DNA of 58,977 nt, counting the filler. It is 6 parts of 6 records of this genome, joined end to end, with 100 filler letters (N's around TTAATTAATTAA, not from the genome) between each part and the next. Parts side by side here need not be neighbours in the genome. Positions count along the whole stretch, not along the records: positions 13,418 to 31,797 come from SRR31156797_30833; 5 more parts are not named here. One strand, 5' to 3'. Made by a program: the position numbers and the translations under genes. The notes beneath the pieces are model-generated. The model made no database searches and was not told where the DNA came from. It worked only from the letters and a program-made list of their open reading frames with translations. Below are positions 13,318 through 31,015 of the stretch, in pieces (the first letter of the stretch is position 1; each line of letters starts with the position of its first letter).

Positions 13318-13417
13318 NNNNNNNNNNNNNNNNNNNNNNNNNNNNNNNNNNNNNNNNNNNNTTAATTAATTAANNNNNNNNNNNNNNNNNNNNNNNNNNN
13401 NNNNNNNNNNNNNNNNN
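13318..13417. other. Artificial contig spacer
   Basis: N44-TTAATTAATTAA-N44. Confidence 0.98.
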
Positions 13418-13440
13418 TTCAACTCCGATTCCTGGCTCCA
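13418..13440 (+). tRNA. tRNA 3' fragment, probably tRNA-Thr
   Basis: TTCAACTCCGATTCCTGGCTCCA: T loop, acceptor 3' strand ending GGC-T-CCA; identity inferred, anticodon not visible. Confidence 0.65.
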
Positions 13441-13448
13441 AGGATATG

Positions 13449-13485
13449 AAGCCTCACAGCAATTTATGTGCTGTGGGGCTTTTTT
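13449..13485 (+). terminator. Intrinsic terminator after the tRNA
   Basis: AAGCCTCACAGCA-loop-TGCTGTGGGGCTT followed by T run. Confidence 0.8.
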
Positions 13486-13583
13486 GCGACAAACGGTAAA
13501 AACACATTATTACTCTGTAATGGATGCCCCCCCTTGAGAGAATCTAATTTTTACCAAAAATTACTTGTTCTCATCATTATTAA

Positions 13584-13617
13584 ATAGAAAAGACCGACAG
13601 GGGGCACCTGTCGGTCT
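13584..13617 (-). terminator. Intrinsic terminator of the minus-strand catabolic cluster
   Basis: AGACCGACAGG-5 nt-CCTGTCGGTCT, followed on minus strand by TTTCTAT. Confidence 0.8.
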
Positions 13618-13722
13618 CGGGGGTGAGCTGTTCCAACCAAAGAGATGGAGGTGTGACTAAGAAGCACGGTTAAGGATATGCCTCTAGACAGGGGTGATGG
13701 GGGCATCACTCTTTGGGGTCAG

Positions 13723-16539
13723 CTATTTGTTGGTTGTACACTCATCAATCAGATAGAGTATATTTCGGTATGTCTTGCCACCGTGAAGAGTCAGGCCTAT
13801 CTCGCAGGTACGGGAGGTACTGTACCCTTCGGAACACCCGCGGGTGCTCTCTTTGAGAGTGCGTAATGCAGAGGCGTTGAGCTCTGGATGGGTAAAACCC
13901 TTGTCACCGGAGAATCCACAGCAGTGAATCTCTTCGGGAATGACGACTTCGGTCACACATTTCTCTGCAACCTGACGAAGGGTTTCAACCAATCCCATTT
14001 CACGGGTGGAACATGTCGGATGTAATGCAACACTCCAGGTCTTCTTGGTAAAACAAAGCTTGTCAGAAAGGAATTTCAGGACGAATTCGGCTGGCTCATA
14101 CAGATCAAGCCTTTCGTCAAGTGTCTTTCTCATGCGTGCAAGGCAGGGGCTGGTGTCACACAAAACCGGAATGCTTCCATTGCCAGTTTCACGAAGCAAA
14201 ACTTTTCCAAGCTCATCGGACTTGCGATCAGCCTGCTCGAACATCCCCTTGGTTTCAAAAGCCTTACCACAGCACAACCCCTTGGTTTTGTCCGGGATTA
14301 TTACTGTGAATCCAGCTCTCTCCAGCAACCGTAATGTCACATCGATAAGCGGCTCATTCTTGTGAACGCCATCATCTGCATAGCCCATTGTCCGAACAGC
14401 ACAGGATGGGAAGTAAACAACTTTATTTTCACCGTGTGTTTTCCTGAGAGTCGGAATCGAAGAACCGCCGGTCAATTTGATCTCACGTAAGTCAGGGACA
14501 GTCATGCCTGTAATACCCTTAACAATGGGAGCTGTCTTGGTCGCCAAAGTATGCCCCATGAGCTTGTGTGCAGCGGATGCCACGTGCAGCATGGATGAAG
14601 CCGTGCTTTCCACAAGCTTGAAATGATTGGCAACCTTGTCAGCGCGGGAAATCTCGGTTTCCGTCAGAGCTTCGTTACGCAACTTTTTCATATATCCGGC
14701 AATATCAAGACCAAGTGGGCAACGCATGGAGCACAAGCCATCAGTAGCACACAGATCGCGGCCCTTCTTATCAAACAGCTTTTGCCATGCTTCAGCTTTG
14801 GTCAGATCGCCTGAAGCCCGCAAACATGCGATGGCGCGCAGGATATAAATACGCTGACGGGAAGAGAGGCCGACTTCCTTGGAAGGACAGACGTATTCAC
14901 AAAATCCACAGTCCACACAGGTGTCAACAATCTTGTCCACCGGCCCGGCATATTTCAGATTGGTCAGATGGCAGCGCGGATCATCATTGAGAATAACCTT
15001 GGGGTTGAGCAGGTTCTCTGGATCAATGACGTGCTTGAGGTCCTGCATGACTTTATACAAATCATCGCCCCACTCCAAACGAACAAACGGTGCTACGGCT
15101 CGGCCAGTACCATGTTCGGCCTTGAGCGCTCCGCCCAATGACAAAACAACATCACCAACTTCGGCGATAAGCTCGCCCATCCTGATCAAATCTTTTTCTA
15201 CATTGAGTCTGAGCGGAATCGAGAAATGAATATTGCCGTGCAAAGCATGCCCATGCACGCCGGATTCGGTGAATCCATGCTTGGCAAGAATTTCCACGAA
15301 AGAGCTACAGGCTTGGGGCAAATTCTGAATGGGGACGCAGTAATCCTCGGAATATGCGTATTCATCAGGAGCACGGGTACCTGCAAGAATCGGGAACAAG
15401 GCACGACGAATATTCCACAAAGATTCGCAGACTTCGTGATCCATCACGAACTCGGGCTGGACAGCAACGTCCACGCCACTCAACGCTTCAAGCACGAGGT
15501 CAACGTTAGTCTTCAGCTTTTCAGCATCCTCGCCACGTGTTTCCAGCAGCAATGCGCAGCCGTCATCACCCAATCCCTGAAGGGAATTCGGAAATTCCGG
15601 CAACTGCATCAATGCACTCAACGAAACACAGTTGAGAAATTCAACGGCATACATATCACACGTCTTTTCGAGACGCAGGACGCCCTGAATCGCTTCATCA
15701 AGCGAAGTAAACCCGACCAGAGCCGTCGCACGCAAAGGTTTGAGCACACCTGTACGAATCGTGATGGAATGAATAAAGGCAAGGGTGCCCTCGGAACCAA
15801 TGATGAGATGCTGAAGCAACTCGACAGGGTCCTCGTAATCAGTAAACGCATTCAGGCTGTAACCTGCAGTGTTCCTGATGGAAAATTTACGTCTGACTTT
15901 TTCATCCATGACTTCGTCATTAAGAATCCGTTCACGAATATCGAGAAGGTCCTGAAGCATCTTAGCGTGACTTTTCCTGAAAGCGGCCACACTGGCTTCG
16001 TCTTCCGTGTTCACAGTGGTTCCATCAACCAAAGTGAAATGCAGACCTGTCATCATATGATACAAGTTTTTGTCGATGGTACAGCTCAAACCCGCTGCAT
16101 TGGTGGCTGCCATACCACCGATGAAAGCGCTGTTGACCGAGGAAGGATCGGATGTCATCAGGCGTTTGTATGGAACAAGCGCCGCATTGATATCACCACC
16201 GACAACGCAACATCCTGCGCGCACCCGCTCGCCGTCATCAAGAATTTCCAAACGCTTCCAGTGTGGACCGACAAGTCGGACGGTGACTTCTTCGGCAATA
16301 GTCTGTCCACTCACACCAGTACCTGCTCCACGAAAAGTCAAACTGACTTTATGGGCATGGGAATAACGAAGCAACGCTTCCAATTCTTCCGGGGTTGTGA
16401 CATCCACAACCGCCTTGGCAATGGGCTCGAAAGGGCTACCATCAACGGAATAAGCCTTTACCAGCAACTCTTCCGTATGAACTCTTTCTTCCGGGAACGT
16501 ATTCTTGACATCAGCAATAAATACATCAATAGGACACAT
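13723..16539 (-). CDS. FAD-binding and Fe-S (CCG) 2-hydroxyacid dehydrogenase, Dld-II/GlcD-GlcF-like fusion
   Basis: FRGAGTGVSGQ, GSEGTLAFI, KAEHGTGR, LLNPKV; CVDCGFCEYVCP and CATDGLCSMRCP; two CCG domains (GLCCG, HCCGFSG). Confidence 0.88.
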   Translation of the reverse strand: MCPIDVFIADVKNTFPEERVHTEELLVKAYSVDGSPFEPIAKAVVDVTTPEELEALLRYSHAHKVSLTFRGAGTGVSGQTIAEEVTVRLVGPHWKRLEILDDGERVRAGCCVVGGDINAALVPYKRLMTSDPSSVNSAFIGGMAATNAAGLSCTIDKNLYHMMTGLHFTLVDGTTVNTEDEASVAAFRKSHAKMLQDLLDIRERILNDEVMDEKVRRKFSIRNTAGYSLNAFTDYEDPVELLQHLIIGSEGTLAFIHSITIRTGVLKPLRATALVGFTSLDEAIQGVLRLEKTCDMYAVEFLNCVSLSALMQLPEFPNSLQGLGDDGCALLLETRGEDAEKLKTNVDLVLEALSGVDVAVQPEFVMDHEVCESLWNIRRALFPILAGTRAPDEYAYSEDYCVPIQNLPQACSSFVEILAKHGFTESGVHGHALHGNIHFSIPLRLNVEKDLIRMGELIAEVGDVVLSLGGALKAEHGTGRAVAPFVRLEWGDDLYKVMQDLKHVIDPENLLNPKVILNDDPRCHLTNLKYAGPVDKIVDTCVDCGFCEYVCPSKEVGLSSRQRIYILRAIACLRASGDLTKAEAWQKLFDKKGRDLCATDGLCSMRCPLGLDIAGYMKKLRNEALTETEISRADKVANHFKLVESTASSMLHVASAAHKLMGHTLATKTAPIVKGITGMTVPDLREIKLTGGSSIPTLRKTHGENKVVYFPSCAVRTMGYADDGVHKNEPLIDVTLRLLERAGFTVIIPDKTKGLCCGKAFETKGMFEQADRKSDELGKVLLRETGNGSIPVLCDTSPCLARMRKTLDERLDLYEPAEFVLKFLSDKLCFTKKTWSVALHPTCSTREMGLVETLRQVAEKCVTEVVIPEEIHCCGFSGDKGFTHPELNASALRTLKESTRGCSEGYSTSRTCEIGLTLHGGKTYRNILYLIDECTTNK

Positions 16540-16651
16540 AGGAACTCCTTATGAAAAGCATCGGGCGGGAGCTCCGACACTTTTCTGTACATATGAAAAA
16601 TGGTGTCTGCATCAGATTTCATTGTATGGTTTAGGCGATAACCGCCTATAA

Positions 16652-16687
16652 GGGCCCCCAGACAGAGTGCGATCCGTCTGGAGGCCC
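16652..16687 (-). terminator. Hairpin after the OFOR gamma gene
   Basis: GGGCCCCCAGAC...GTCTGGAGGCCC; second small hairpin TAGGCG-CGCCTA at 16632-16648; weak U-tract. Confidence 0.4.
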
Positions 16688-16696
16688 GCTCGCAAC

Positions 16697-17233
16697 CTAA
16701 ACGGCGTTATACCCGCATTCGAAAGCCTTCATGTTGCCGGCTTCGAATTTTTCTTTTCCTTTCTTCCTGAACATGTCGTTCATGCCCTGGATTCCGTCTT
16801 CCATGGTGAAGTCGCCTGCCAATTTGATGATGGCTGCGGCTGCGATAACGTTCGCACCACGGGGCTGTTTAATCTCCTGAGCCAAGGTGCTGCATGACAG
16901 TTTGTACACACTCACGTCGTCGCGGACGTTCACGTCACAATCAACCATGTCACTGTTGACCAGAATAATTCCACCGGGCTTAACCATGGGATAGAACATC
17001 TCGAAAGACGGACCGTTCATGGCCAGCAACAAATCAGGCTCTTCCTGAGCTGGATTGTAGATGGTGTCCTCACCATACTTGACGGTGCAGTTTGCAGTAC
17101 CACCGCGCATAGCTGAACCGTAAGAAGGAATCCATGTTGCATTCTGGCCTTTGAAAACAGCGACCTGCGACATGATCAGACCGGAAGTCAGCACTCCCTG
17201 CCCACCAAAACCTGCGTATATTATCTCACGCAT
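16697..17233 (-). CDS. 2-oxoacid:ferredoxin oxidoreductase gamma subunit
   Basis: MREIIYAGFGGQGVLTSG, WIPSYGSAMRGGTANC; ATG at 17233. Confidence 0.93.
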   Translation of the reverse strand: MREIIYAGFGGQGVLTSGLIMSQVAVFKGQNATWIPSYGSAMRGGTANCTVKYGEDTIYNPAQEEPDLLLAMNGPSFEMFYPMVKPGGIILVNSDMVDCDVNVRDDVSVYKLSCSTLAQEIKQPRGANVIAAAAIIKLAGDFTMEDGIQGMNDMFRKKGKEKFEAGNMKAFECGYNAV

Positions 17234-17234
17234 T

Positions 17235-17975
17235 CTAGTTCTCCTTCCTTTCCTTGAAGACACCCAGCGGATAGTAGGGGATAAGTTCCTCTTCGATCCG
17301 TTTCATGGAATTCAAGGGAGTCATCTTCCAGTTGGTCGGGCACGGTGACAGCACTTCAATGACTGAATAGCCTTCACCATTCAACTGTGCCTCAAGACCA
17401 TTCTTGATGTACTTTTTCAATTTATTGACATTCTTGGGAGAGGTCACTGCACCACGAGCGGCAAAAGCCAAGTCGAACTGGCTGGCGACCAACTCAGGGA
17501 ACTTGAGGGGATTACCTGTGATTTCGCAATCACGACCCAAAGGCGAAGTGGTGGTCACCTGCCCGGGCATGGTTGTCCAGCTCATCTGTCCACCAGTCAT
17601 ACCGTAGTTGGTATTGTTGATGGCGATCATGGTGAAGTTCTCGTTGCGGTAAGCCGCATTGATGGTCTCGGCAATACCGATGCTGTAAGCATCACCGTCG
17701 CCCTGATAGGCAACAATGGTGTTTTCAGGCTGAACCCGCTTCATACCGGTGGCAACTGCGGAAGCACGACCATGGGGGCAATGCAACCTGTCGGTCACCA
17801 ATCCGCCACCCAGCAGGCTGGAGCAGCCAACACCAAGGGCGAAGATAAGGTTCTGGTCCTGCCCCAACTCTTCGAGGCATTCAGTTATGAGCCTGATCAC
17901 GATGCCATGCCCACAACCGGGACAAAATGACATCGGGTTATCAATGATGGCAGGCACTTTTCTTGCTTTAGCCAT
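17235..17975 (-). CDS. 2-oxoacid:ferredoxin oxidoreductase beta subunit (ThDP-binding, Vor-like)
   Basis: FCPGCGHG, GVGCS, GDGD...NNTNYGMTGGQ, LSPCPTNW; ATG overlaps alpha stop (TAATG). Confidence 0.93.
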   Translation of the reverse strand: MAKARKVPAIIDNPMSFCPGCGHGIVIRLITECLEELGQDQNLIFALGVGCSSLLGGGLVTDRLHCPHGRASAVATGMKRVQPENTIVAYQGDGDAYSIGIAETINAAYRNENFTMIAINNTNYGMTGGQMSWTTMPGQVTTTSPLGRDCEITGNPLKFPELVASQFDLAFAARGAVTSPKNVNKLKKYIKNGLEAQLNGEGYSVIEVLSPCPTNWKMTPLNSMKRIEEELIPYYPLGVFKERKEN

Positions 17976-19036
17976 TAGTAAGCCTCCTTGATCTCGCCAC
18001 TCATAATCTTGTGCAACCCTTCCTTGGTGAATTTGATGGTGGGGATGCCATACACACAGGGAAGGCAATATGTGGACACGTTGCGATCCTTGATTGTTTT
18101 CTTGATAGTCAGAGCGACATCGTCAACGAGTTGACCGGTGGCGTTGGCTTCAACCGAGATAAGCCCCTTCACATCCTTGTTGATGTTTTCAAAGGCTTTC
18201 TCCGGGAACGGCCAGGTCGTAATAGGACGAATGAATCCGACCTTATGACCTTCAGCTCTCAATTCCTTGACCGCGCCTTGTACGGAACGTCCGGGCAATC
18301 CGAAAGCAACGAAGACGTAATCCGCATCTTCCAGCCCATCTTCTTCCCAACGCTGTTCTTCGGCCTTGATGGTCTCATGCTTCTTATTCAGTTCGACAGC
18401 TTCATCCATGGAGTTACGATCAAAGATGCCGATTTTCTTATAGGTATACTTGCCGTCAAATCCCCATGGGTGCTTTTCAGGCTCAATGAAGTCGGGCATT
18501 TCGCACGGCTCCATCATCTGACCAAGTGCGCCCTCAGTCATCATGACTGTGACGATTCTGTACTTTTCAGCCAATTCATAAGCAGTGGCCATGAGGTCGA
18601 CTGCTTCCTGAATGCTTCCGGGAGACAGAACGATGCAACGATAGTCACCGTTACCGCCGCCACGTGTTTCGCGATGGTAGTCGCACTGAGCAGAATACAA
18701 AGTACCCAGTCCGTTGCCGTATCGAACTACGTTGATGACAACGCAAGCCAATTCTTCATCAGAGATACAGGAAATACCTTCCTGCTTAAGGCTGATGCCG
18801 GGACCGGATGAAGCCGTGAGAGCGCGTACGCCACATGCGGCAGCACCCATGACCATATTGATACCTGCGAGTTCACTTTCAGCCTGGACAAAACTTGCCC
18901 CGACTTCGGGCAGACGCTTGGACAGGTATTCCATGATTTCCGTGGAAGGAGTGATGGGGTACCCTGCGTACAACTTGACGCCAGCCCTCACCGCAGCTTC
19001 GGCGATTGCAATATTTCCTTTAATCATGTCGCCCAT
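17975..19036 (-). CDS. 2-oxoacid:ferredoxin oxidoreductase alpha subunit (Vor-like)
   Basis: KGNIAIAEAA, AGYPITPSTEI, QAESELAG, TASSGPGISLKQE. Confidence 0.93.
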   Translation of the reverse strand: MGDMIKGNIAIAEAAVRAGVKLYAGYPITPSTEIMEYLSKRLPEVGASFVQAESELAGINMVMGAAACGVRALTASSGPGISLKQEGISCISDEELACVVINVVRYGNGLGTLYSAQCDYHRETRGGGNGDYRCIVLSPGSIQEAVDLMATAYELAEKYRIVTVMMTEGALGQMMEPCEMPDFIEPEKHPWGFDGKYTYKKIGIFDRNSMDEAVELNKKHETIKAEEQRWEEDGLEDADYVFVAFGLPGRSVQGAVKELRAEGHKVGFIRPITTWPFPEKAFENINKDVKGLISVEANATGQLVDDVALTIKKTIKDRNVSTYCLPCVYGIPTIKFTKEGLHKIMSGEIKEAY

Positions 19037-19261
19037 TTAGTTCTCTCCTCCAGACTCGCCTTTCTGCGAGATCTCATACACCCCGTCAGGACACATTGTG
19101 TAGCAGATGCCACACTTGATGCATTTGGCATCATCAACTTCTACAGGCCTGTAACCGGCACTGTTTAATTTGTCGGAAAAAGAGATTGCTTCATTTGGAC
19201 AGTGAGCAACGCACAGTCCGCATTCCTTGCATCTTTCTTCCTTGACTGTGATAACATCCAT
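19037..19261 (-). CDS. 2x[4Fe-4S] ferredoxin, OFOR delta subunit
   Basis: CKECGLCVAHCP and CIKCGICYTMCP. Confidence 0.93.
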   Translation of the reverse strand: MDVITVKEERCKECGLCVAHCPNEAISFSDKLNSAGYRPVEVDDAKCIKCGICYTMCPDGVYEISQKGESGGEN

Positions 19262-19310
19262 AATCGTTTCAAACCTCTATGTTATATTATTCAGACAGCA
19301 GACTTTGAAC

Positions 19311-20588
19311 TTACGCTGCCTTTTCAACCGACTTTGCAAGGCTCTTCTTGTACTTGAAGGTCAGCAATGCACTGATGACACCAACAACAGTCATTACGAT
19401 GTCGTATGTGAAGATCATGGTGTATGCTTCGTTGCCATAGGTATCGATCCAGTTACCAAAGAGAATGAACTGGAAGAGGTCGGGGGAATAACCAATGGCA
19501 CAGACAATACCGCCGGTGATGGCTGCGTACTTCAAGGGAATCTGAACCTCGGAAGGAACAGCGAACATGGCACCACGAGCGGTGAACACGAAGGAGCTCA
19601 AAAGCAACATCAAAGTGATGGCGATGCCGATGGCGGTGTGTTCAGGTAGGAACATGATGGTCAGGATCACGCCGATACATGCGAGCCAGGAGAAAAGAAG
19701 AACCTTGGTCACAGAGTTCATCTTGTCGCCAAGATATCCACCGACCGGGCACAGGAAGAACCTGAGGCCGTATGTTCTGATAATGGCCAGTCCGCCGGAA
19801 AAGACCACGGAAACGCCGAGAACATTGGTGAAATAAGGCGTGAAGTAGGACAAAGAGCAGTACAGAGTATAAGTAGAGAAAACAGCAATACCGGCAAACC
19901 ATGTGCCAGGGCACTTCAAGACAATGAAGAAATCCTTGAGAGTGATCTTGTCGGAACTCTTGCTTGCAGCAACTTCAGTTTTTTCTTCTTTTTTGGGATC
20001 TTCGATAAGGTAGTACAGGATGGCGGTAGTAATGACACCACACACGGAGAAGAAGATCAGAACGGCCTTGAAACCAAAGATTTCGTTGGCGTATTTGGCG
20101 AAAACAGCCAAAGCGATAGCGTTCACAATGGTGCTGCCGATACCAGCGAAGGATTCGGCAAAACCAAAGACTTTACCCTGCTTGGACTCGTCAACCAACG
20201 AACGAACGATCTTGATATGTGCCGGGAAAAGCAGAAACAGTCCGGTTACTGCCAGGCCCGCAAATACAAAGATCGAAAAGCCATAGTTGAGATTGAAGGC
20301 CCACAGGAGAGACAACATGGACGTTCCAAACAAACCGGCGAGATATACCAGCTTATGGTTGTACTTGTCTGAAATGATACCGCCAATGGGTGCACCAGCA
20401 ATGTTACCGATGCCGAAAATGGCTACAAGAGTACCGAGTTGAGCGTTGGTCGCATTCAGAGCGTGCATGGTGGTATCATAAAATACGTACTGGACGAACG
20501 GAACTGCGTAAGTGATGGCATACCCCATGCCAATGAAAAAGAGGATGACAAATGTTTTTACATTAAATCCTTTACTTTCCTGCATCAA
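19311..20588 (-). CDS. MFS transporter (YihN/YqcE-like)
   Basis: About 12 hydrophobic segments, GGIISDKYNHK and GGYLGDKMNS loop motifs. Confidence 0.85.
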   Translation of the reverse strand: MMQESKGFNVKTFVILFFIGMGYAITYAVPFVQYVFYDTTMHALNATNAQLGTLVAIFGIGNIAGAPIGGIISDKYNHKLVYLAGLFGTSMLSLLWAFNLNYGFSIFVFAGLAVTGLFLLFPAHIKIVRSLVDESKQGKVFGFAESFAGIGSTIVNAIALAVFAKYANEIFGFKAVLIFFSVCGVITTAILYYLIEDPKKEEKTEVAASKSSDKITLKDFFIVLKCPGTWFAGIAVFSTYTLYCSLSYFTPYFTNVLGVSVVFSGGLAIIRTYGLRFFLCPVGGYLGDKMNSVTKVLLFSWLACIGVILTIMFLPEHTAIGIAITLMLLLSSFVFTARGAMFAVPSEVQIPLKYAAITGGIVCAIGYSPDLFQFILFGNWIDTYGNEAYTMIFTYDIVMTVVGVISALLTFKYKKSLAKSVEKAA

Positions 20589-20618
20589 TTTCTCCTCAAG
20601 TTAAAGAATGAACTACAG

Positions 20619-21515
20619 CTAGGACTGAGCCAGGAGGCAGGCGAGAGCTATGGAATTGATCTTCACCTCTGCGGTATCGGAACGAGATCCGAGCACCACA
20701 GGATGAGTCGTTCCAAGCACAACCCCTGCCCATTTCGCATTGCTGAGAGTCAACCAGGATTTGCCAAGCGCATTCCCGGTCTCAATGTTAGGTGCGAGAA
20801 TCAAATCGACCTCGCCGCTGACTTTGCTGTCGATACCTTTGTGCTCTGCCGCGTGCCGATCAAAAGCCACATCAAAAGCGATCGGGCCTTCAATGACACA
20901 ACTCGGAATTTCCCCCTTTTCTGCCAGTTTCACGAGCATATCGGCATCAACTGAAGCCTGGATTTTTGGATGAACGGTTTCACTTGCTGTCAGTGCAGCC
21001 ACGTTGGGACAATCCATGCCAAGGCGCTTCATGGCCCCAAGGGCATTGACGAGAATTGCCTGCTTCTGCTCCACGTCGGGAGCAGTGTTTATCCCGCTGT
21101 CACTACAATAAATCAGCTTGTGATATTCTTTGAGATCGTAGACGGCCAAGGCACTGATAAGGCTCCCGTTTCGCAGCCCTGTCTCCCTGTTCAGGATCGC
21201 ACGCATGTATGTGGCAGTGTTGATAATGCCCTTCATGAGTACGTCAGCCTGACCAGATTTAACGATTTCAACGGCAACAGCCGCGCACTCGTCAACGTCA
21301 TCACATGCGACCAATTCGAAATCGGTCAATCCGACTTCAGCAGCCAAATCACGAACTATTTTTTCATTGCCAACCAGAACCGGACGCATGAATCCCATGT
21401 CCACGGCCAGTTTGACGGCATGCAGCAATTCTCCGTCTTGGGCAGCGGCAACACACACCTTGTATTGTCTGCCAGACTTGGCTTTTTCTATTAATTCATT
21501 AAAATCTTTCAACAC
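20619..21515 (-). CDS. ptb: Phosphate acyltransferase (phosphate butyryltransferase family)
   Basis: ADVLMKG, DSGINTAP, EGPIAFDVA, PNIETGNALGK, SRSD. Confidence 0.9.
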   Translation of the reverse strand: MLKDFNELIEKAKSGRQYKVCVAAAQDGELLHAVKLAVDMGFMRPVLVGNEKIVRDLAAEVGLTDFELVACDDVDECAAVAVEIVKSGQADVLMKGIINTATYMRAILNRETGLRNGSLISALAVYDLKEYHKLIYCSDSGINTAPDVEQKQAILVNALGAMKRLGMDCPNVAALTASETVHPKIQASVDADMLVKLAEKGEIPSCVIEGPIAFDVAFDRHAAEHKGIDSKVSGEVDLILAPNIETGNALGKSWLTLSNAKWAGVVLGTTHPVVLGSRSDTAEVKINSIALACLLAQS

Positions 21516-21536
21516 AACTGATTCTCCACTTACATA

Positions 21537-22595
21537 TTAATATGTTTGTACTTCTTCGGTTCCGCTCATGACGCGGAGTGCACCAAGAGTCAGTGCCGTC
21601 ATTTCCTTTTCACCGGCAATGACCTCAAACTGTCCCAGATAGCCGACCCGTTCCCTGAGTTTCTCAACAATCAAGTCCGAATGGGCGATGCCACCAGTGA
21701 TAATGATACGGTCAACGTCACCGCTCAGTGACGCACCATACGCAGCGATTTCCTTGGCAGTCTGATAAATAAAAGAATCCAGTACTTTCACGACCTTTTC
21801 TTCCTTGGCCAAGTACCTGTTTTCAATGTCCATCATGTCCTTGGTGCCGAGGTAATCGAACATGCCCGCCTTGGTGCTGATCTTGCTCACCATTTCTTTC
21901 TGGGTATATTTTCCGCTGTAGCAAAGTTCGACCAACGGGAAGCTCGGCAGACCGCCGCAACGTTCGGGAGAAAACGGACCGTCGCAGCGACCTCCGCTTC
22001 CATCAATCATGCATCCCTTGAGGTGTGCAGCGATGGAAATTCCTGACCCCAAATGCGCAACGATAAAATTGAAATCCTGATATTTCCCGTTGAGACGCTC
22101 GGCAGTTTCACGACAAACAGCCTTCTGATTAAGTGCATGCATCCAACTGGAGCGTTCAAGATCGGAAATCCCGGAAATCTTAGCGATATCGAGGAATTCA
22201 TCCACAGACACGGGGTCAACGATAAATGCAGGGACATCAATGGAATCGGCGATATCCTTAGCAATGACAGGCCCGAGATTCGAAGGATGTTCACCATTTA
22301 TGGCGTTACGCAGATCTTCGATCATGGCGTCATTCACTTCATACGTGCCGCCTTCGACCGGTTTGAGCAGTCCACCGCGTCCGACAACGCAATCAAAATC
22401 TTCGATCTGGTAATCATTCGCCCGAAGTCTTTCGACGATGACGTCCTTGCGGTAGCGAAATTGATCAAACACGGAGTCAAAATCGTGCAACTCCGACTCC
22501 TGATGCATGACGTTCTCGCTGAAAAGCTCTTCTTCATTATTGAAGACAGCGATTTTGGTGGACGTTCCACCGGGGTTGATAGCAAGTATCTTCAC
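21537..22595 (-). CDS. buk: Butyrate kinase family carboxylate kinase
   Basis: INPGGTSTKIA, GRGGLLKP, HALNQKA, HLGSGIS, GPFSPER, TGGIAHS. Confidence 0.92.
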   Translation of the reverse strand: MKILAINPGGTSTKIAVFNNEEELFSENVMHQESELHDFDSVFDQFRYRKDVIVERLRANDYQIEDFDCVVGRGGLLKPVEGGTYEVNDAMIEDLRNAINGEHPSNLGPVIAKDIADSIDVPAFIVDPVSVDEFLDIAKISGISDLERSSWMHALNQKAVCRETAERLNGKYQDFNFIVAHLGSGISIAAHLKGCMIDGSGGRCDGPFSPERCGGLPSFPLVELCYSGKYTQKEMVSKISTKAGMFDYLGTKDMMDIENRYLAKEEKVVKVLDSFIYQTAKEIAAYGASLSGDVDRIIITGGIAHSDLIVEKLRERVGYLGQFEVIAGEKEMTALTLGALRVMSGTEEVQTY

Positions 22596-22619
22596 AATTA
22601 ATTCTCTTCGATGTTTCAG

Positions 22620-23396
22620 TTATTTGATACGACTTGATGTCTGAACCAATTCCGTTATTTCACTCGCAACCTGCTTCAATCTGGTTACGACATTTTCAAT
22701 ATTGATATGCTGGATGCGCTGGGAAGGACCGGACACACTCATGGCTGCAATGGCTTCCCCTTTCTTGTTGAAAACAGGGACACCAACGCAGATGAGGCCG
22801 ACTTCCTGCTCTTCATTGTCCAAGGAATATCCATCGCGTTTGACCTTCGCCAATTCCGCAACCAATTCGTCGTAGCTGGCAATGGTATTCGGTGAATATT
22901 TCTTGAATTCATACTTTTTCAAAATCTCGTCGGAAATATCCGAAGAGAATGCGAGCAGGCTCTTGCCCACCGATGAACAATAACAATCATTTTTTGACCC
23001 AACTTGCGGGCTGACGGACAGAACGTTGTCGATGGCATCTTCCTTGACCACGACAACACTTTGATATGGCCCGGAAGTCGTTTTATCCAAAACTGACACG
23101 TTGACCGTTTCCTTGAACTCTTGATTCAACTCTTTGACGAACGGTACAAACACATCATAGAGCGTGATCTTGTTAGCCATGGAAAACAGGCTGACTCCCA
23201 ATGTGTACTTCCCGGTTTCCGGGTCCTGCTGCACGAAATGCCTGTCTTCCAATGTCGCCAAAGTACGGAACACTGTACTTTTGTAGATGCCCATATCCTT
23301 ACTGATGGTTGATATGCCCACCGGATCTTTTTGACTGTTTATATACAACAAGACATCCAACGCTCTTGCGACTGAACTGATAATATTATTAGACAC
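22620..23396 (-). CDS. IclR family transcriptional regulator
   Basis: SVARALDVL, KSTVFRTLATL HTH, CSSVGKSLLA, GYSLDNEE...CVGVPV. Confidence 0.95.
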   Translation of the reverse strand: MSNNIISSVARALDVLLYINSQKDPVGISTISKDMGIYKSTVFRTLATLEDRHFVQQDPETGKYTLGVSLFSMANKITLYDVFVPFVKELNQEFKETVNVSVLDKTTSGPYQSVVVVKEDAIDNVLSVSPQVGSKNDCYCSSVGKSLLAFSSDISDEILKKYEFKKYSPNTIASYDELVAELAKVKRDGYSLDNEEQEVGLICVGVPVFNKKGEAIAAMSVSGPSQRIQHINIENVVTRLKQVASEITELVQTSSRIK

Positions 23397-23425
23397 TTTT
23401 CTCTCTCCCCTTCATGACCTTTGAG

Positions 23426-24991
23426 TTACTGCAGAATATCGAGTTTCTTCTGCATCTGAATCAGCTTTATCAAGGAAAACGCTGATCCTATTATCACTAA
23501 TGTGATTGGTGCTCCACCAAGATACGTCAAAGTTTTCATCCCATCGAGGCCTGAAAAGACCAACATGATAAACGCGAGGGTTCCAATCATCACTCCCCAT
23601 GCGATCTTGAGAAATGGAGGTGCTTCCTGATTGGACTCAGAGAGATTCTTTGTCGTGAGAGAAGCCATAGCGTTGGTGGTTGAATCCGCAGCCGTGATAA
23701 AGGAAATGAACACAGCAAAAAGAAAAACAGGAATGATGAAGTTCGCCAAAGGCAGGTTTTCAAGCAAAACATACACAGCCTCATCAACACCTGTTGCAAT
23801 GTTTGCCTGCAAATTCACACCACCGACAATCTGCTGCCAAATTGCGGTACTGCTGAAAACCGAAGCATGAAGGAACACATAAACCATGGGGAAAAGGACA
23901 TTGACGGAAATGAACTCTCTGACTGTGTACCCTTTGGAAATTCGACCGAGGAACAATGCCGAGATCGGTGCCCATATCATGTAGTTCGCAAAAGAAAACA
24001 CTGTCCATTTCTGTGGCCATGAATCAACGCGGAACGAATCCGTAAACAGACACCGCTCAAAGAAATGTCCGACAAAGGAACCAAAAGATTCAACACTGAA
24101 GTCGAGTATAAAGACTGTAGGACCGACAATAAAAACAACAGCCATCAGGCCAAACAATAATTTGGCATTGAGTTCTGAAAGAATACGCATGCCTCTCAGC
24201 ACACCGCTAATGGAAGAAATAATACAGATGATCATGACAATGACGATGAGTATACCCCACGTCTGTGGCGCACTTTCAATGAACGGAAACATTCTTGAAA
24301 GCCCCCCGGACAACATAAGCACACCGGTCCCGAGGGACGTGCCCATACCCAATGCCAAAGCATAGAGGGAAACAATGTCCACGACTTTCCCCATACTCCC
24401 GTTTGCTCTCTCTCCCATAATTGGAAACAGGATAGACCCCAAGCTGAAGGGACGCTTAAGGTTGTAGTAGCAGATTGCAAACACCAATGCAGGCAATGCG
24501 TTGATTGAATAGGGAACCAATCCCCAGTTCATATACATGGAGGCGAGAGAAAAACGAGCAGAACCATAGGTGTTTGCGGCAAATCCGAGAGCCTGCGGAG
24601 GTGCGAGCATATCCTGAAGAGGTTCAACGATGGGCCAGAACAAGATATTAATAGCAATAGTAGTACATAACGTAATGGAAAACCATTGCCACTTATTCAA
24701 TACAGGTTTGGCTTTTTTACCACCAATAACAATGTTACCGAACTGGGAAAAGAATGCAACGCTGATAACTACTAAACAGAACAATCCCGTAATCGAGAAA
24801 AGCCAACTGAAATTTTTAAGGATAAACTTCTGACCAGTCGTAACGACGAGACCAAATGTATCTGGCATTATCAAACCAATAATCACAGAAAATGCAATAA
24901 GTGAAAATGGTGCCCAGAAAACTAAACTGTTCAATTCTTTGTGTGTATCAGTATCGCTAGAATATTTTGCTGATAGGCTCTTGGTACTCAA
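23426..24991 (-). CDS. BCCT family transporter, divergent substrate pocket
   Basis: LFWPIVEP, NWG, WAP..LFLGRISKGYTVREF, FITAADS; AGGAG before TTG start. Confidence 0.88.
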   Translation of the reverse strand: MSTKSLSAKYSSDTDTHKELNSLVFWAPFSLIAFSVIIGLIMPDTFGLVVTTGQKFILKNFSWLFSITGLFCLVVISVAFFSQFGNIVIGGKKAKPVLNKWQWFSITLCTTIAINILFWPIVEPLQDMLAPPQALGFAANTYGSARFSLASMYMNWGLVPYSINALPALVFAICYYNLKRPFSLGSILFPIMGERANGSMGKVVDIVSLYALALGMGTSLGTGVLMLSGGLSRMFPFIESAPQTWGILIVIVMIICIISSISGVLRGMRILSELNAKLLFGLMAVVFIVGPTVFILDFSVESFGSFVGHFFERCLFTDSFRVDSWPQKWTVFSFANYMIWAPISALFLGRISKGYTVREFISVNVLFPMVYVFLHASVFSSTAIWQQIVGGVNLQANIATGVDEAVYVLLENLPLANFIIPVFLFAVFISFITAADSTTNAMASLTTKNLSESNQEAPPFLKIAWGVMIGTLAFIMLVFSGLDGMKTLTYLGGAPITLVIIGSAFSLIKLIQMQKKLDILQ

Positions 24992-25125
24992 AATTATCTC
25001 CTTGAGTAATTTTGTTTCATTAAATTCAAATAATAAATCATTTTTTTATATCAGCTCTTCAGTTTATCCCCGTTTTGAAATTACTACAGAGATTTTTCAT
25101 CTATGCTCTATGGTTTTACATTGTG

Positions 25126-25144
25126 CGTTCTACTGTGTGGAACG
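25126..25144. promoter_or_regulatory. Palindrome upstream of BCCT gene, candidate IclR operator
   Basis: CGTTCTAC-TGT-GTGGAACG (8-bp arms, 1 mismatch) about 135 nt upstream of the operon start. Confidence 0.45.
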
Positions 25145-25641
25145 ACGTTCTATCTTTCGACGCCTTTGCAATGCACCATGTCGAAAACTTAGTCAACCAG
25201 ATTTGTAAAAATAGTTGAGTCAAAACTGATATGATCAAAAAAAACATGAGAAGGGGTAACGCGACATAAAATATAATTCCAAGCTGTTAGCTCTGGATTC
25301 ATTCAATCGAGCAAAGTGAAACAGCACAATAAAAAAACTTTACTCGTCAGTTATACGACCCAAACCACATGATGAATACGGAGGTTCCCAAGATAACTAA
25401 TACCAAAAAAAGGGCGATAAAAAGACTCAACGCGCCCCGACAAGGAACAACACATAGGGAGAACGCCCTTTCATCTCAAAGGACACGCCAAATAAATAAT
25501 CAAATAAAACAGCTTACTAAACCAGTAAGCGTACTTATTTATTCCTATAAAATCATATTTCTATTGTCTGTCACGACTCACAAAGCAAGAGGGCTTGCCT
25601 TTTATGACATTCTCAAATATCAATAAATCTAGATATAAGGA

Positions 25642-25800
25642 TTTGGCGAGAAACGGAAAGCGGTGAAAAGCCGCTGCGGACGCGCCGCTGTAACCGGCAA
25701 TACCCGTTGAAAACCACCTTTATGGGGAAGGGATTCAACACAATGGGACCGGAAGCCAGAAGACGTCTTGCCAAAGAGCGAACGACCTCGCGACCAGGTT
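25642..25800 (+). ncRNA. Cobalamin riboswitch upstream of metE
   Basis: GGAAAGCGGTGAAAAGCCGC, CCGCTGTAA, CCAC...GGGAAGG, B12 box AAGCCAGAAGAC; closing stem TTTGGCGAGA/TCTTGCCAAA; precedes the B12-independent methionine synthase. Confidence 0.88.
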
Positions 25801-25912
25801 GGTGATGCAGATATTCATACGACACGGGATCATATCATCCGGTGTGTCATGCTCTGTTGCCAACAAACCGAGGCTCGCGCTCTTCGTCTTTCACCCGAAA
25901 CATGGAGTAGAC

Positions 25913-28189
25913 ATGAACGCGCACGTATTGGGTTTTCCCAGAATGGGGATTAACCGCGAATTAAAATGGGCACTCGAAAAATTCTGGCGAGGGGAAACAA
26001 CAGAAACCGCACTCGTTTCCACAGCCGAAGGACTCAAGCAACGCCACTGGAATCTTCAGGCCTCGTCAGGAATGGACCTGCTGCCAGTCGGCGACTTTTC
26101 TTTATACGACCATATTCTGGACACTATCGCCATGCTCGGAGCAGTCCCTCAACGGTTCCAGCATGACGGGAATACAATCGACCGCAAAACATATTTCCAT
26201 ATGGCCAGGGGCAATGTCGAAAAAAGCATTCCGGCCATGGAAATGACCAAATGGTTTGATTCCAACTATCATTATATTGTCCCGGAACTCAGCCCAAACA
26301 TGTCCTTCAAAAAGGACAACTCTCAACTACTGGCAGATATAAAAACGGTTAAAGAACTCGGACACTCGCCAAAACCAGTCCTTGTCGGCCCGCTCACCTT
26401 TCTCCTGCTTGCAAAAGAGACTGATGGTTGCAACCGGTGGGACCACCTTGAACGCATGACTGATGTCTATTGCGAAGTCATCACGGAAATCGCCGCACAT
26501 TGTTCATGGATTCAAATTGATGAGCCGATCCTGTGCACCGACCTTCCAGCCGAAGCCAAAACAGCATTCCAGTCCGTATATTCCAAACTGCGCACAGTCA
26601 CCAACAGCACACGAGTGCTGCTCACAACCTACTTTGGCGATCTCGGTGACAATCTGGATCTGGCCTTGTCTCTGCCGGTTGATGGTATCCACATTGATTT
26701 GATTCGTGGACCGAACCAATTGGATGAAGTTCTGTCCAAGCTACCCGCCCATTTTACTCTCTCACTGGGGCTCGTGGATGGAAGGAACATATGGAAAACA
26801 GATCTTGAAGCTGCAGCACGACAAGTGAATATCGTTCGCCAAAAGGTCAAAGCCACTCATATCATGGTTGGCTCCAGCTGCTCACTCCTCCACTCTCCCG
26901 TGGATATCTCTGCAGAAGAGAATCTACCCCCTACACTTAAACAGTGGATGGCTTTTGCCGCTCAGAAATGCGAGGAAATTGCCGCTCTAAAACACGCTGC
27001 AACAACTGCCGAAAAGCCCCCGTTATTCGCCGAGAACAAAACCGCATTGCTTGCCCGGGCAGCTCATCCCGAGGTTATTGACCTTCAAACTCGCGAAAGA
27101 GTGCAGGCTATCACACCCGAAATGTTCAACCGTAATTCCCCCTTCACGGAACGCATTGCCATTCAACGTAATCGACTCAAGCTCCCGCTCTTCCCGACCA
27201 CGACAATCGGTTCATATCCCCAGACAGCCGAGATACGAAAAGCCCGCCTTGAATACAAAAAAGGTACTCTTTCCGAAACCAAATACATTGAAACAATGCA
27301 AGGGCATATACGAGAGGTTGTCGATCATCAGGAAGAATTGAAGCTTGATATTCTCGTGCATGGAGAACCGGAAAGAAACGATATGGTTGAATACTTCGGC
27401 CAACAACTCAAAGGATTCTGCTTCACTTCCAACGGGTGGGTCCAAAGTTACGGCAGTCGGTGCGTCAAGCCGCCGATCATATACGGAGACATTTCCCGTC
27501 CCGAAAAAATGACCGTGGATTGGGCGGTCTATGCGCAAAGCCTGACGAAGAAACCCATGAAAGGCATGTTAACTGGCCCGGTGACCATTTTGTGCTGGAG
27601 TTTTGTCCGTAATGACATGCCCCGAAGCGAAGTTTGCCGCCAGATTGCGCTGGCAATTCGCGATGAAGCTGTGGACCTCGAAACGGCTGGGATCGACGTC
27701 ATTCAAATCGATGAAGCTGCTCTTCGTGAGGGCATGCCCATACGAAAAATCCAACAGGACGAATACCTGCGATGGGCCGTGGATTGTTTCAAATTGGCGT
27801 CCAGCGGCGTCAAGGATAGCACGCAACTGCACTCGCACATGTGTTACAGCGAATTCAACGTCATCATGAAATCCATTGCGGAAATGGATGCTGACGTCAT
27901 TAGCATTGAAGCAAGCCGTAGCGGCATGGAATTGCTCGACGCTTTCAACGCATACCAATATCCCGCTGAAATCGGTCCGGGTGTCTACGACATTCATAGC
28001 CCCAGAGTTCCCGGTGCAGACGAAATATACTGGCTCTTGCAAAAAGCTCTGAAAGTCATTCCCGCAGAACGTCTGTGGGTCAATCCCGATTGCGGCCTGA
28101 AGACTCGGGCATGGCCAGAAACTCTCGCCTCCCTAAGAAACATGGTCACAGCTACCATACGTTTAAGAAACGAACACACACAGCAATAA
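25913..28189 (+). CDS. metE: Cobalamin-independent methionine synthase
   Basis: LGFPRMG, EMTKWFDSNYHY, PTTTIGSYPQT, HGEPERNDMVEYF, HMCYSE, NPDCGLKTR; GGAG before ATG 25913. Confidence 0.97.
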   Translation: MNAHVLGFPRMGINRELKWALEKFWRGETTETALVSTAEGLKQRHWNLQASSGMDLLPVGDFSLYDHILDTIAMLGAVPQRFQHDGNTIDRKTYFHMARGNVEKSIPAMEMTKWFDSNYHYIVPELSPNMSFKKDNSQLLADIKTVKELGHSPKPVLVGPLTFLLLAKETDGCNRWDHLERMTDVYCEVITEIAAHCSWIQIDEPILCTDLPAEAKTAFQSVYSKLRTVTNSTRVLLTTYFGDLGDNLDLALSLPVDGIHIDLIRGPNQLDEVLSKLPAHFTLSLGLVDGRNIWKTDLEAAARQVNIVRQKVKATHIMVGSSCSLLHSPVDISAEENLPPTLKQWMAFAAQKCEEIAALKHAATTAEKPPLFAENKTALLARAAHPEVIDLQTRERVQAITPEMFNRNSPFTERIAIQRNRLKLPLFPTTTIGSYPQTAEIRKARLEYKKGTLSETKYIETMQGHIREVVDHQEELKLDILVHGEPERNDMVEYFGQQLKGFCFTSNGWVQSYGSRCVKPPIIYGDISRPEKMTVDWAVYAQSLTKKPMKGMLTGPVTILCWSFVRNDMPRSEVCRQIALAIRDEAVDLETAGIDVIQIDEAALREGMPIRKIQQDEYLRWAVDCFKLASSGVKDSTQLHSHMCYSEFNVIMKSIAEMDADVISIEASRSGMELLDAFNAYQYPAEIGPGVYDIHSPRVPGADEIYWLLQKALKVIPAERLWVNPDCGLKTRAWPETLASLRNMVTATIRLRNEHTQQ

Positions 28190-28195
28190 AACACG

Positions 28196-28241
28196 GAGAA
28201 TCCGCGCCTGAAAGTCATTCTCGGGCGCGGATTCTCATTTC
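28196..28241 (+). terminator. Terminator hairpin after metE
   Basis: GAGAATCCGCGCCTGA-loop-TCGGGCGCGGATTCTC-ATTTC. Confidence 0.75.
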
Positions 28242-28454
28242 CTATCCTTCTCCTCGCCCCTTCTCTCTCCAATTCTCACTCCTCGCAACATCACACATTG
28301 ACATCAATTTATGATATACCCAGAAAAACCTTTTTTTCTGATAGATAACAATAACTGGTCAGGCCACTATGAATCAATTTGCCAAGGAGTATGAGTGGCG
28401 TTTATAAGGACGGCGGTCTCATATTAAAAACAATTTAGATGACAAAGGAATAGA

Positions 28455-29732: not shown

Positions 29733-29767
29733 GTCCACAACGCTGGTCCAACCAAAACAACGATTCA

Positions 29768-29810
29768 AAGCGCAACTCGCCAAATTCAATTTTGGCGAGT
29801 TGCGCTTATT
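29768..29810 (+). terminator. Terminator hairpin after the PAS gene
   Basis: AAGCGCAACTCGCCAAA-TTCAAT-TTTGGCGAGTTGCGCTT, perfect 17-bp stem. Confidence 0.8.
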
Positions 29811-29903
29811 CTATGCTTAAGACCTTTTAGACCCTCTATTTCATACCAAATCATTTCAAACGTTTAGAACGTTTATTGTTCAAAAAACAATCTCCCAAAG
29901 CCC

Positions 29904-30028
29904 TATCTGGCCCAACCAGTTTGATAAACATTTCCACCAAAACCCTTGCGCCGATGCTTTTTCATTCATAAAACCGCTCTTATTGGAAGGAGAGACTCGA
30001 TAAACTTCAAAACTGGTTGGACCAGATA
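29904..30028. promoter_or_regulatory. Pair of FadR-type GntR operators (TGGY-N3-ACCA)
   Basis: TATCTGGCCCAACCAGTTT (29904-29922) and AAACTGGTTGGACCAGATA (30010-30028): 19-bp inverted copies with 1 mismatch; second abuts the GntR ATG. Confidence 0.65.
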
Positions 30029-30705: not shown

Positions 30706-30733
30706 AAACCGTTTCACAATCAGAACACAGATC

Positions 30734-30961: not shown

Positions 30962-31015
30962 TTGGTTTCCGAGGATTGATCACCCTCTCCAGCGAACTCG
31001 CCAAAGGAATGTAAC

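Follow-up and report, generated by a model that had tools for sequence, protein, structure and literature searches.

The Desulfovibrio luo operon for lactate encodes a monomeric PFOR, Pta, AckA, a lactate permease and a D-lactate dehydrogenase of the GlcD/FeS type; it takes a hydroxy acid through the oxo acid, the acyl-CoA and the acyl phosphate to the acid and ATP in a sulfate reducer. Here we describe a cluster of ten genes from a Pseudodesulfovibrio-like sulfate reducer that would follow the same logic with other families, namely a VOR-like four-subunit 2-oxoacid:ferredoxin oxidoreductase (OFOR), Ptb and Buk, together with BCCT and MFS carriers. The cluster lies in a stretch of 58,977 nucleotides (the window, i.e., the whole of the DNA analysed), which is made of six contig pieces. 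The initial annotation had set it apart from lactate clusters, and the families bear this out, since they are not PFOR, Pta, AckA and lactate permease. In our best reading, the ten genes are one operon, presumably co-transcribed, that would oxidise a D-2-hydroxy acid to the acid shorter by one carbon with the gain of one ATP. On the basis of sequence comparisons, we lean towards D-phenyl-lactate and/or D-4-hydroxyphenyl-lactate as the substrate, which would give phenylacetate (PA) or 4-hydroxyphenylacetate (HPA).

The trio of OFOR, Ptb and Buk has already been described for aromatic amino acids. According to Jiang et al. (Adv Sci 2026; PMC13285125), HpdDEFG (a VOR-like OFOR), HpdJ (Ptb) and HpdK (Buk) of Clostridium scatologenes convert 4-hydroxyphenylpyruvate to HPA with a yield of ATP. 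The same paper reports for Clostridioides difficile that the kinase adjacent to 'Cd2' (an IOR) prefers PA and HPA, that 'Cd3a' groups with VORs already known, and its adjoining kinase prefers propionate, isobutyrate and isovalerate, and that the kinase adjacent to 'Cd3b' uses PA and HPA, and the ligase adjacent to 'Cd3c' PA, HPA and indoleacetate (IA). DeFeo et al. (bioRxiv 10.64898/2026.01.29.702580) describe VOR-like OFORs that prefer aromatic substrates, and loci in which an aminotransferase is joined to homologues of Ptb and Buk. In Blautia hydrogenotrophica and Intestinibacter bartlettii, two gut acetogens which we liken to the window from that description, the OFORs are VOR-like by sequence and aromatic by assay and the three genes co-occur; unlike in the window, the description includes neither a hydroxyacid dehydrogenase nor a BCCT.

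The window cluster resembles HpdDEFG/HpdJ/HpdK in that a four-subunit VOR-like OFOR, a Ptb and a Buk would lead from a 2-oxo acid to the shorter acid, ATP and reduced ferredoxin, a likeness drawn by family and by mapped loci. It differs in that the 2-oxo acid would come from a membrane-type FAD/FeS D-2-hydroxyacid dehydrogenase rather than from an aminotransferase, in having a BCCT and no HPA decarboxylase, and in its host, a sulfate reducer instead of a Firmicute. Our literature search returned nothing on a version of this gene set with hydroxyacid dehydrogenase and BCCT in sulfate reducers. The earlier view that the set is not a described pathway thus fails for the core trio (PMC13285125; bioRxiv 10.64898/2026.01.29.702580) and holds for the version with dehydrogenase and BCCT. 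The features of the cluster, assigned with Pfam and NCBIfam models, are the following.

24992-25219, minus strand: upstream region, presumed promoter/operator; conserved with the closest relative (L001), the translated similarity ending at 25219
23426-24991, minus strand: divergent BCCT-family carrier, first gene; PF02028 399.8 bits; TTG start behind AAGGAG
22620-23396, minus strand: IclR-family regulator; HTH_IclR and IclR_C domains
21537-22595, minus strand: Buk-family acyl kinase; TIGR02707 451.9 bits, cutoff 289.1
20619-21515, minus strand: Ptb-family phosphate acyltransferase; PF01515; TIGR02706 313 bits, below the cutoff of 410.5
19311-20588, minus strand: MFS carrier; MFS_1 104 bits; matches the D-galactonate / anion:cation symporter subfamily weakly (TIGR00893 60.8 bits)
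19037-19261, minus strand: OFOR delta, a 74-aa 2x[4Fe-4S] ferredoxin; two CxxCxxCxxxCP motifs and matches to delta-subunit families
17975-19036, minus strand: OFOR alpha (POR_N and PFOR_II), VOR-like; NF005507 VorB 380.8 bits, below the cutoff of 399
17235-17974, minus strand: OFOR beta, TPP-binding; PF02775
16697-17263, minus strand: OFOR gamma; PF01558 124.5 bits
13723-16539, minus strand: 938-aa dehydrogenase with FAD_binding_4, FAD-oxidase_C, Fer4 (4Fe-4S dicluster) and CCG domains (Pfam)
13590-13618, minus strand: intrinsic-terminator-like hairpin 3' of the last gene; 12-pair stem with 7 GC pairs, T-run
13318-13417, no strand: artificial linker N44-TTAATTAATTAA-N44, at the edge of the contig piece that holds the cluster

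The ten co-oriented genes are thus present where they were first annotated, and their spacing is tight: the gaps are of 0-49 nt (29, 24, 21, 30, 49, 0 and 0 nt in operon order, then an overlap), except for 157 nt 5' of the last gene. Buk and Ptb are the neighbours separated by 21 nt. The OFOR beta gene starts at the ATG at 17974, behind AAGGAGG and right after the stop codon of alpha, and not at 18068. In OFOR alpha, the motif YPITP and the loop RYGNGLGTLYSAQCDYHRETRGGGNGDYR are kept in orthologs. The Ptb scores 313-322 bits against NCBIfam phosphate butyryltransferase models, all below their cutoffs (399-410).

In the mechanism that we propose, the FAD/FeS/CCG dehydrogenase would form the 2-oxo acid by oxidising the D-2-hydroxy acid, and would pass the electrons toward the membrane pool, because its CCG domain is HdrD/GlpC-like. 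The four-subunit OFOR would then yield acyl-CoA, CO2 and reduced ferredoxin, the Ptb homologue (a putative phosphate aryl-acetyltransferase) would form the acyl phosphate, and the Buk homologue (a putative aryl-acetate kinase) would release the acid and ATP. IclR would sense the substrate or the product, and one carrier would serve the import of the substrate and the other the export of the product. The operon would be an oxidative 'aromatic Stickland' trio of the HpdDEFG/HpdJ/HpdK type, in which a hydroxyacid dehydrogenase replaces the aminotransferase. The chemical sequence from 2-hydroxy acid to 2-oxo acid, acyl-CoA, acyl phosphate, acid and ATP had been put forward in the initial annotation; catalytic residues and exchanges of the feeding enzyme among relatives support it.

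When metagenomes were scanned with 11 aligned orthologous kinases, 80 loci were kept of at least 599 matching stretches; 22 of the 80 have kinases with at least 57% identity. All loci were mapped by tblastn and near-identical ones merged, which left 21 lineages. Some were repeats of loci already in the set (L010-L017, L041, L052), and others were joined to a close relative (L045 with L044, L049 with L042, L055 and L057 with L053, L054 and L056 with L051, L061 with L062, and L043 with the window). Four loci were excluded as too short (L018, L046, L058, L066), and L063 and L064 because they group with a paralog in the tree.

The core of IclR, Buk, Ptb, OFOR and usually MFS also occurs in Bacillota, with an aminotransferase or an amino-acid dehydrogenase instead of the hydroxyacid dehydrogenase. 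An IclR gene adjoins the module in 20 of the 21 lineages, and an MFS gene, not always orthologous, stands beside it in most. The candidate enzyme for supplying the 2-oxo acid is the FAD/FeS dehydrogenase in eight lineages, an aminotransferase of the KAT-II/ArAT-II/LysN family in nine, and a HisC-type aminotransferase, a LeuDH/TrpDH-like dehydrogenase and a GlcD-like FAD dehydrogenase (L059) in one each; the last lineage has no visible feeder, and its contig ends there. Additional transporters vary too: NhaC-family in nine lineages, BCCT in five (all of the dehydrogenase type), and TRAP, AGCS, YfcC-type or APC carriers in single lineages. The strongest argument for a 2-oxo acid as the common intermediate is that entry enzymes swap while OFOR, Ptb, Buk and IclR stay constant; this also indicates that the 938-aa protein would produce this oxo acid from a 2-hydroxy acid.

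The nature of the feeders also bears on the side chain. The nearest solved relatives of the common aminotransferase are Pyrococcus PH0207 (KAT/ArAT-II), the Thermococcus multiple-substrate aminotransferase and Thermus LysN, and that of the HisC-type enzyme is a putative phenylalanine aminotransferase of Mycobacterium tuberculosis. A basic amino acid (Arg, His) was considered on the strength of the names of YfcC and ArcD-like transporters and of MppQ/GntC-like aminotransferase hits; it was dropped because the relatives of solved structure are KAT/ArAT-II and the phenylalanine aminotransferase. The amino-acid dehydrogenase (L039:7720-9075, minus strand) has an unusual specificity to judge from its sequence: it has Gly at the positions of LeuDH A113 and V294, Lys at that of L40 (a GDH-like KGG motif) and an N-terminal extension of 100 aa. 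In glutamate dehydrogenases, the Lys equivalent to L40 binds the side-chain carboxylate.

The kinase and the transacylase belong to clades with distinct signatures. The comparison took in 31 orthologs and 86 paralogs of Buk, and for Ptb 25 orthologs and 41-43 paralogs. The Buk clade has G10, W151, S184, G199-S-G-G-R203, M245, D247, K252, F275 and Y286, and canonical Buk has S, I/L, G and V-N-N-A-D/N at the first four of these sites. The loop D-V-N-N-A-D/N, whose V-N-N-A is found in 84-88% of the 86 paralogs and in Thermotoga maritima Buk2, is thereby replaced by D-G-S-G-G-R; we assume its placement relative to the acyl pocket from work on acetate kinase. The structure paper on butyrate kinase 2 was retracted, according to a later paper. 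The Ptb clade has Y126, F214, G251 (Tyr in paralogs), W254 and G276 (Thr in paralogs). These changes enlarge pockets and add aromatic residues, with Tyr251Gly and Thr276Gly accompanied by Trp254, Tyr126 and Phe214 in Ptb, and Val-Asn-Asn replaced by Gly-Ser-Gly, with Phe275 and Tyr286, in Buk. The atypical pocket motifs noticed at the outset are therefore real, as clade-specific substitutions in Buk, Ptb and OFOR and as changes in the aromatic box and glycine stretch of the BCCT. The classical VOR-Ptb-Buk systems (Clostridium sporogenes, C. difficile 'Cd3a') share the three families and the energy logic of the window; they differ from it in the D-V-N-N-A loop of Buk and Tyr251/Thr276 of Ptb, which it lacks, and in OFOR alpha, which stays below the VorB cutoff in the window (561.9 bits in the canonical locus of genome G623).

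The clade appears to reach into C. difficile. A protein named C. difficile butyrate kinase at NCBI (P0221, 412 member sequences) is 62% identical to the window Buk, stands among its best 120 homologs and falls within its ortholog clade in a quick maximum-likelihood tree of 46 rows; it has the same sequence as the L049 protein and 97% identity with a Buk of G623. This genome has three Buk genes: the first stands in locus L133 next to IorAB, the second in L132, which reads ptb-buk-x-OFOR, and the third in L042, which reads IclR-OFOR-Buk-Ptb-aminotransferase-MFS. The L042 Buk and Ptb carry every signature residue of the clade, and the L132 and L133 proteins do not. Scores on the VorB and Buk models are 561.9/583.8 bits for L132, 411.1/473.2 for L042 and 380.8/451.9 for the window, and the IOR-linked kinase (L133) has 472.1 bits on the Buk model, close to that of L042. 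The TIGR02707 cutoff does not discriminate, as the IOR-linked and Cd3b-type kinases of G623 are above it too. A third VOR-like OFOR alpha gene of G623 (L134) adjoins a HisC-like aminotransferase and an ADP-forming ligase. The window OFOR alpha is 56% identical to this ligase-linked protein, 47% to that of L042 and 44% to that of L132. We took L132 as 'Cd3a' because it has the canonical top-scoring VOR/Buk pair, L042 as 'Cd3b' by elimination and because of its model scores, with a kinase score like that of the IOR-linked kinase, and L134 as 'Cd3c' because its OFOR stands beside an ADP-forming ligase. The window Buk and Ptb thus share clade and signature with the locus mapped to Cd3b, and the window OFOR is nearest to the Cd3c type. 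This suggests, with a mapping of G623 by elimination, that both halves of the module lead to enzymes whose published partners handle aryl-acetates.

The dehydrogenase keeps the catalytic and metal-binding set in an alignment to mouse LDHD: Arg379, His431, His438, Glu475 and His476 correspond to Arg347, His398, His405, Glu442 and His443, and PMC10589216, on the LDHD active site, gives His398 and His405 as metal ligands. In side-chain subsite B, Trp351 and Ile407 of LDHD are replaced by Leu382 and Ser440, and Ser365 is kept as Ser397; the three are identical in the seven aligned orthologs, which predicts a roomier and partly polar pocket. This subsite has no Lys, Arg, Asp or Glu; 2-hydroxyglutarate enzymes have Thr/Asn/Lys there, the Lys being Lys401 of D-2-hydroxyglutarate dehydrogenase. 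Escherichia coli YdiJ has the same domain architecture and catalytic residues, and the window protein is far from its equivalog model (NF049975, 153 bits for a cutoff of 1350). Shewanella Dld-II has the same architecture and catalytic residues as well. Dehydrogenase homologs at 52-55% identity (L125:1838-11452, L124, L126) adjoin a TAXI-type TRAP transporter and argG/argH, not the trio, and their subsite B is Leu/Val/Thr.

Conservation was assessed in a sample of 301 genomes of the family Desulfovibrionaceae, with a threshold of E <= 1e-60 for Buk. The whole ten-gene set is found at 86-96% protein identity in a Pseudodesulfovibrio metagenome-assembled genome (L001; from the scan of genome collections with the kinase, by tblastn), and the likeness to the window is limited to 13574-25219. 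Three more genomes (G022, G130, G182), whose flanks are unrelated, keep the order BCCT-IclR-Buk-Ptb-MFS-OFOR-dehydrogenase with identities of 60-85%, the copy of G182 being divided between two contigs. The co-occurrence expected of a functional unit is thus seen in other genomes, in an order that recurs at 60-96% identity, beyond chance. Buk matches occur in 105 of the 301 genomes, 9 with orthologs (52-88% identity) and 96 with paralogs alone (35-44%). BCCT orthologs (70-86%) are restricted to four genomes and dehydrogenase orthologs (at least 64%) to six, all with the cluster; the next-best BCCTs are at 33-39%, and lower dehydrogenase homologs form tiers at 53-55%, 47-49% and about 40%. The two remaining genomes (G003, G004) have cluster and dehydrogenase without a BCCT ortholog.

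The BCCT is a full-length member of its fold, with E values from 3e-70 (TmaT) to 6e-36 against the solved BetP, CaiT, BetT, DddT and TmaT, and it scores 315 bits on TIGR00842, below the cutoff of 407.55. It lacks most of the aromatic (Trp) box, whose positions follow the BetP numbering, and its glycine-rich stretch is altered. The stretch GMGIG of transmembrane helix (TM) 3 reads TIAIN, HWGLHAWGIYA of TM4 reads NWGLVPYSINA, and WTIFYWAWWIAWSPF of TM8 reads WTVFSFANYMIWAPI; relative to the five solved carriers, Trp and Tyr of TM4 become Tyr and Asn, and YW..WW of TM8 becomes SF..NY. The altered motifs are identical in all six orthologs, and the family's next closest BCCTs, at 32-37% identity, depart from the canonical motifs as well, to a lesser degree. 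Because its binding-site motifs are rebuilt, the protein is hard to picture as a carrier of betaine, dimethylsulfoniopropionate (DMSP) or 4-dimethylsulfonio-2-hydroxybutyrate (DMSHB). Our guess is that it imports the hydroxy acid. One can picture a mobile 'aryl-lactate respiration' island, with sulfate reducers living on reduced aromatic compounds that fermenters discard, and releasing PA and HPA, and a BCCT that abandoned its quaternary-amine box to carry an aromatic hydroxy acid; we regard this fuller scenario as doubtful.

Several observations weigh against aryl-lactates as the substrate. A BCCT is not the carrier expected for an aromatic mono-anion. The equivalence of G623 loci to Cd3a and Cd3b was obtained by elimination and from model scores, the OFOR of the Cd3b-type locus is just 47% identical to that of the window, and the window Buk is above the 'butyrate kinase' equivalog cutoff (451.9 vs 289.1). 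No C. scatologenes name appears among the best 120 hits listed for each homolog search. The clade has gained positive residues (Arg203 and Lys252 of Buk, Arg122 of OFOR alpha, Arg94 of OFOR beta, and the Lys at LeuDH position 40 in L039), perhaps for an anionic side chain; their partner could be a phenolic oxygen, in favour of 4-hydroxyphenyl compounds, or equally an anionic group. Finally, the DeFeo et al. preprint describes the VOR of C. sporogenes as broad, with branched-chain substrates, keto-methylthiobutyrate and phenylpyruvate, and the window clade may be broad too.

The main rival keeps the same route and changes the substrate: branched-chain or other aliphatic D-2-hydroxy acids (2-hydroxyisocaproate, 2-hydroxyisovalerate, 2-hydroxy-3-methylvalerate) would be converted to isovalerate, isobutyrate or 2-methylbutyrate with ATP, by a classical VOR-Ptb-Buk system with a hydroxyacid front end. 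The Buk score and VorB as the best family of OFOR alpha agree with this, as do the L039 dehydrogenase, which is nearest to leucine dehydrogenases (E 1.6e-40) and to tryptophan dehydrogenases, the BcaP-like permease and Leu/Met-racemase-like class III aminotransferase near the module of L044, and the hydrophobic aliphatic side chains that mouse LDHD-type enzymes accept according to PMC10589216. We nevertheless consider it unlikely. The canonical VOR/Buk pair of G623 is in a locus separate from the one that shares the signature (561.9/583.8 vs 411/473 bits), and the V-N-N-A loop is replaced throughout the window clade. Genomes with the clade retain ordinary Buk paralogs too, and where fermentation of branched chains is widespread the clade is seldom seen, with orthologous Buk in 2 of the 399 scored Clostridia genomes (G409 and G669 being left out of the count).

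The initial annotation had favoured a polar or charged side chain. On this reading, DMSHB would be converted to DMSP or sulfolactate to sulfoacetate, or the substrate would be imidazole-lactate, 2-hydroxyglutarate or 2-hydroxyadipate, or else the thioether 4-methylthio-2-hydroxybutyrate, giving methylmercaptopropionate, and the BCCT would import a zwitterion; dicarboxylates (2-oxoadipate, 2-oxoglutarate) survive only within this group. The strict linkage of the BCCT to the cluster speaks for it, and so do the positive residues listed above (with the L039 Lys at the carboxylate site of glutamate dehydrogenases), the DcuC/YfcC-family and TRAP DctPQM carriers of two relatives, the presence of the 2-aminoadipate aminotransferase LysN in the aminotransferase family and, for the thioether, the activity of the C. 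sporogenes VOR on keto-methylthiobutyrate given in bioRxiv 10.64898/2026.01.29.702580. Yet the BCCT has lost most of the box that holds quaternary ammonium or sulfonium groups, and two of the six family genomes with a dehydrogenase ortholog have no BCCT ortholog. Subsite B of the dehydrogenase is uncharged (Leu/Ser/Ser, without the Lys401 of D-2-hydroxyglutarate dehydrogenase), Ptb gains only Gly and aromatic residues (Tyr-to-Gly and Thr-to-Gly, with new Trp, Tyr and Phe), the feeders belong to families for aromatic or hydrophobic amino acids, and the cluster has no C-S lyase or DMSP gene. A charged side chain of the kind of DMSHB, sulfolactate or 2-hydroxyglutarate is thus not supported, and we find this whole group of substrates distinctly improbable. 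From the original list of candidates, the aryl-lactates are now the best reading, and DMSHB and sulfolactate have little in their favour.

That the module works in reverse, for biosynthesis (an aryl-acetate or a branched acid being turned into acyl-CoA, this into the 2-oxo acid by reductive carboxylation, and this into the amino acid, with flanking transporters scavenging the acids and with dehydrogenase and BCCT as unrelated passengers), is very improbable: although PMC13285125 reports the steps of the trio as thermodynamically reversible and proposes IOR/VOR as biosynthetic in methanogens and Bacteroides, orthologs of dehydrogenase and BCCT are confined to genomes with the cluster, the tight gene order ends in a single terminator, and the kinase and transacylase are an ATP-yielding arrangement, with which the same text contrasts AMP-forming ligases for biosynthesis.

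The module is common to Bacillota and Desulfovibrionaceae, and the latter fall in two separate groups of the Buk tree; the cluster is best read from these data as a horizontally shared island in a Pseudodesulfovibrio-like sulfate reducer. We found no flanking repeats or integrase at its borders in the window, where the lone 'palindrome' is the artificial linker. Relatives of the module are also found on contigs named Desulfovibrio and on gut metagenome contigs.

If aryl-lactates are the substrate, the oxidative route for aromatics, published only in 2026 and for Firmicutes, would reach Desulfovibrionaceae as well, through another entry enzyme. Phenyl-lactate and 4-hydroxyphenyl-lactate are excreted by fermenters, as PMC4683695 reports, and cross-feeding would then lead from the aryl-lactates of lactic-acid bacteria and clostridia to aryl-acetates released by sulfate reducers. 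The relatives on gut contigs could bear on the sources of PA and of p-cresol precursors in the gut. The signature (G-S-G-G-R and W151 in Buk; G251, W254 and G276 in Ptb) would also set kinases and transacylases that act on aryl-acetates apart from the usual annotations 'butyrate kinase' and 'phosphate butyryltransferase'. In the fuller scenario above, the carrier would be the first BCCT for an aromatic hydroxy acid; its rebuilt binding site raises a separate question on the substrate range of this transporter family.

Some relatives encode accessory enzymes beside the trio. Two metagenome loci (L047:3119-7452, L051:2923-6728) have a PadH-like pyridine-nucleotide oxidoreductase, a 4Fe-4S protein like the N-terminal part of PadI and a molybdopterin oxidoreductase of 685 aa that matches formate dehydrogenase alpha best, with molybdenum-cofactor genes near; through these, formate or NADH may be made from reduced ferredoxin and CO2. 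Methionine sulfoxide was considered as the substrate of this oxidoreductase and rejected, as the families (formate dehydrogenase alpha, PadH/PadI-like) have the look of electron disposal and not of a sulfoxide reductase. In a gut metagenome locus (L059:11542-17681), the module is followed by the GlcD-like FAD dehydrogenase, which has no FeS domain, and by a family-I CoA-transferase, with an acyl-CoA dehydrogenase that scores best, below the cutoff, on the acryloyl-CoA reductase AcrC family and with an MFS carrier of the lactate type, which may form a reductive branch for the same hydroxy acids. In a Desulfovibrionaceae relative (L038:8244-9989, minus strand), a 581-aa FAD_binding_2 flavoprotein lies between the HisC-type aminotransferase and the OFOR; it resembles the fumarate reductase/succinate dehydrogenase flavoprotein and AprA, below all cutoffs. 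M20 amidohydrolases (TIGR01891) recur beside the modules of Bacillota (L042:5571-8080, L049:16637-19142, L002:15946-17094, L057:6087 onward), and hint at N-acylated amino acids as an additional entry; the Clostridioides-like loci also have a C45 autoproteolytic acyltransferase/hydrolase.

The six pieces of the window differ in composition, with a GC content of about 0.32-0.38 in the first, 0.42-0.52 in the second and third and 0.27-0.43 in later ones. They are separated by five artificial linkers of 100 nt, N44-TTAATTAATTAA-N44 (6003-6102, 13318-13417, 31798-31897, 38662-38761, 52268-52367), and since the window is a string of pieces, gene adjacency across linkers has no meaning. The cluster lies within the piece 13418-31797, at 305 nt from its end, and the prs, L25 and pth genes that appear 'downstream' are not its physical neighbours because a linker (13318-13417) lies between. 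On the other side, the sole physically linked neighbour is a divergent metE (25799-28189, plus strand; cobalamin-independent methionine synthase), directly preceded by a cobalamin riboswitch (25600-25783, plus strand, 60.5 bits); this pair is not kept beside the cluster in other genomes. At linker borders, rho (6103-6801, minus strand) and infB/IF-2 (31914-32519, plus strand) are truncated to the N-terminal 248 aa and the C-terminal 201 aa, which fits contig ends and not pseudogenes. A low-GC piece encodes methylmalonyl-CoA mutase, a carboxyltransferase and an OAD-beta-type Na+-pumping decarboxylase subunit (41232-46856, plus strand), a set that resembles a succinate-to-propionate module and has no relation to the ten genes. 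Elsewhere in the window (32586-36824, minus strand), domains of glycogen synthase and of alpha-glucan phosphorylase are fused in a 1412-aa protein that adjoins a GH57 enzyme.

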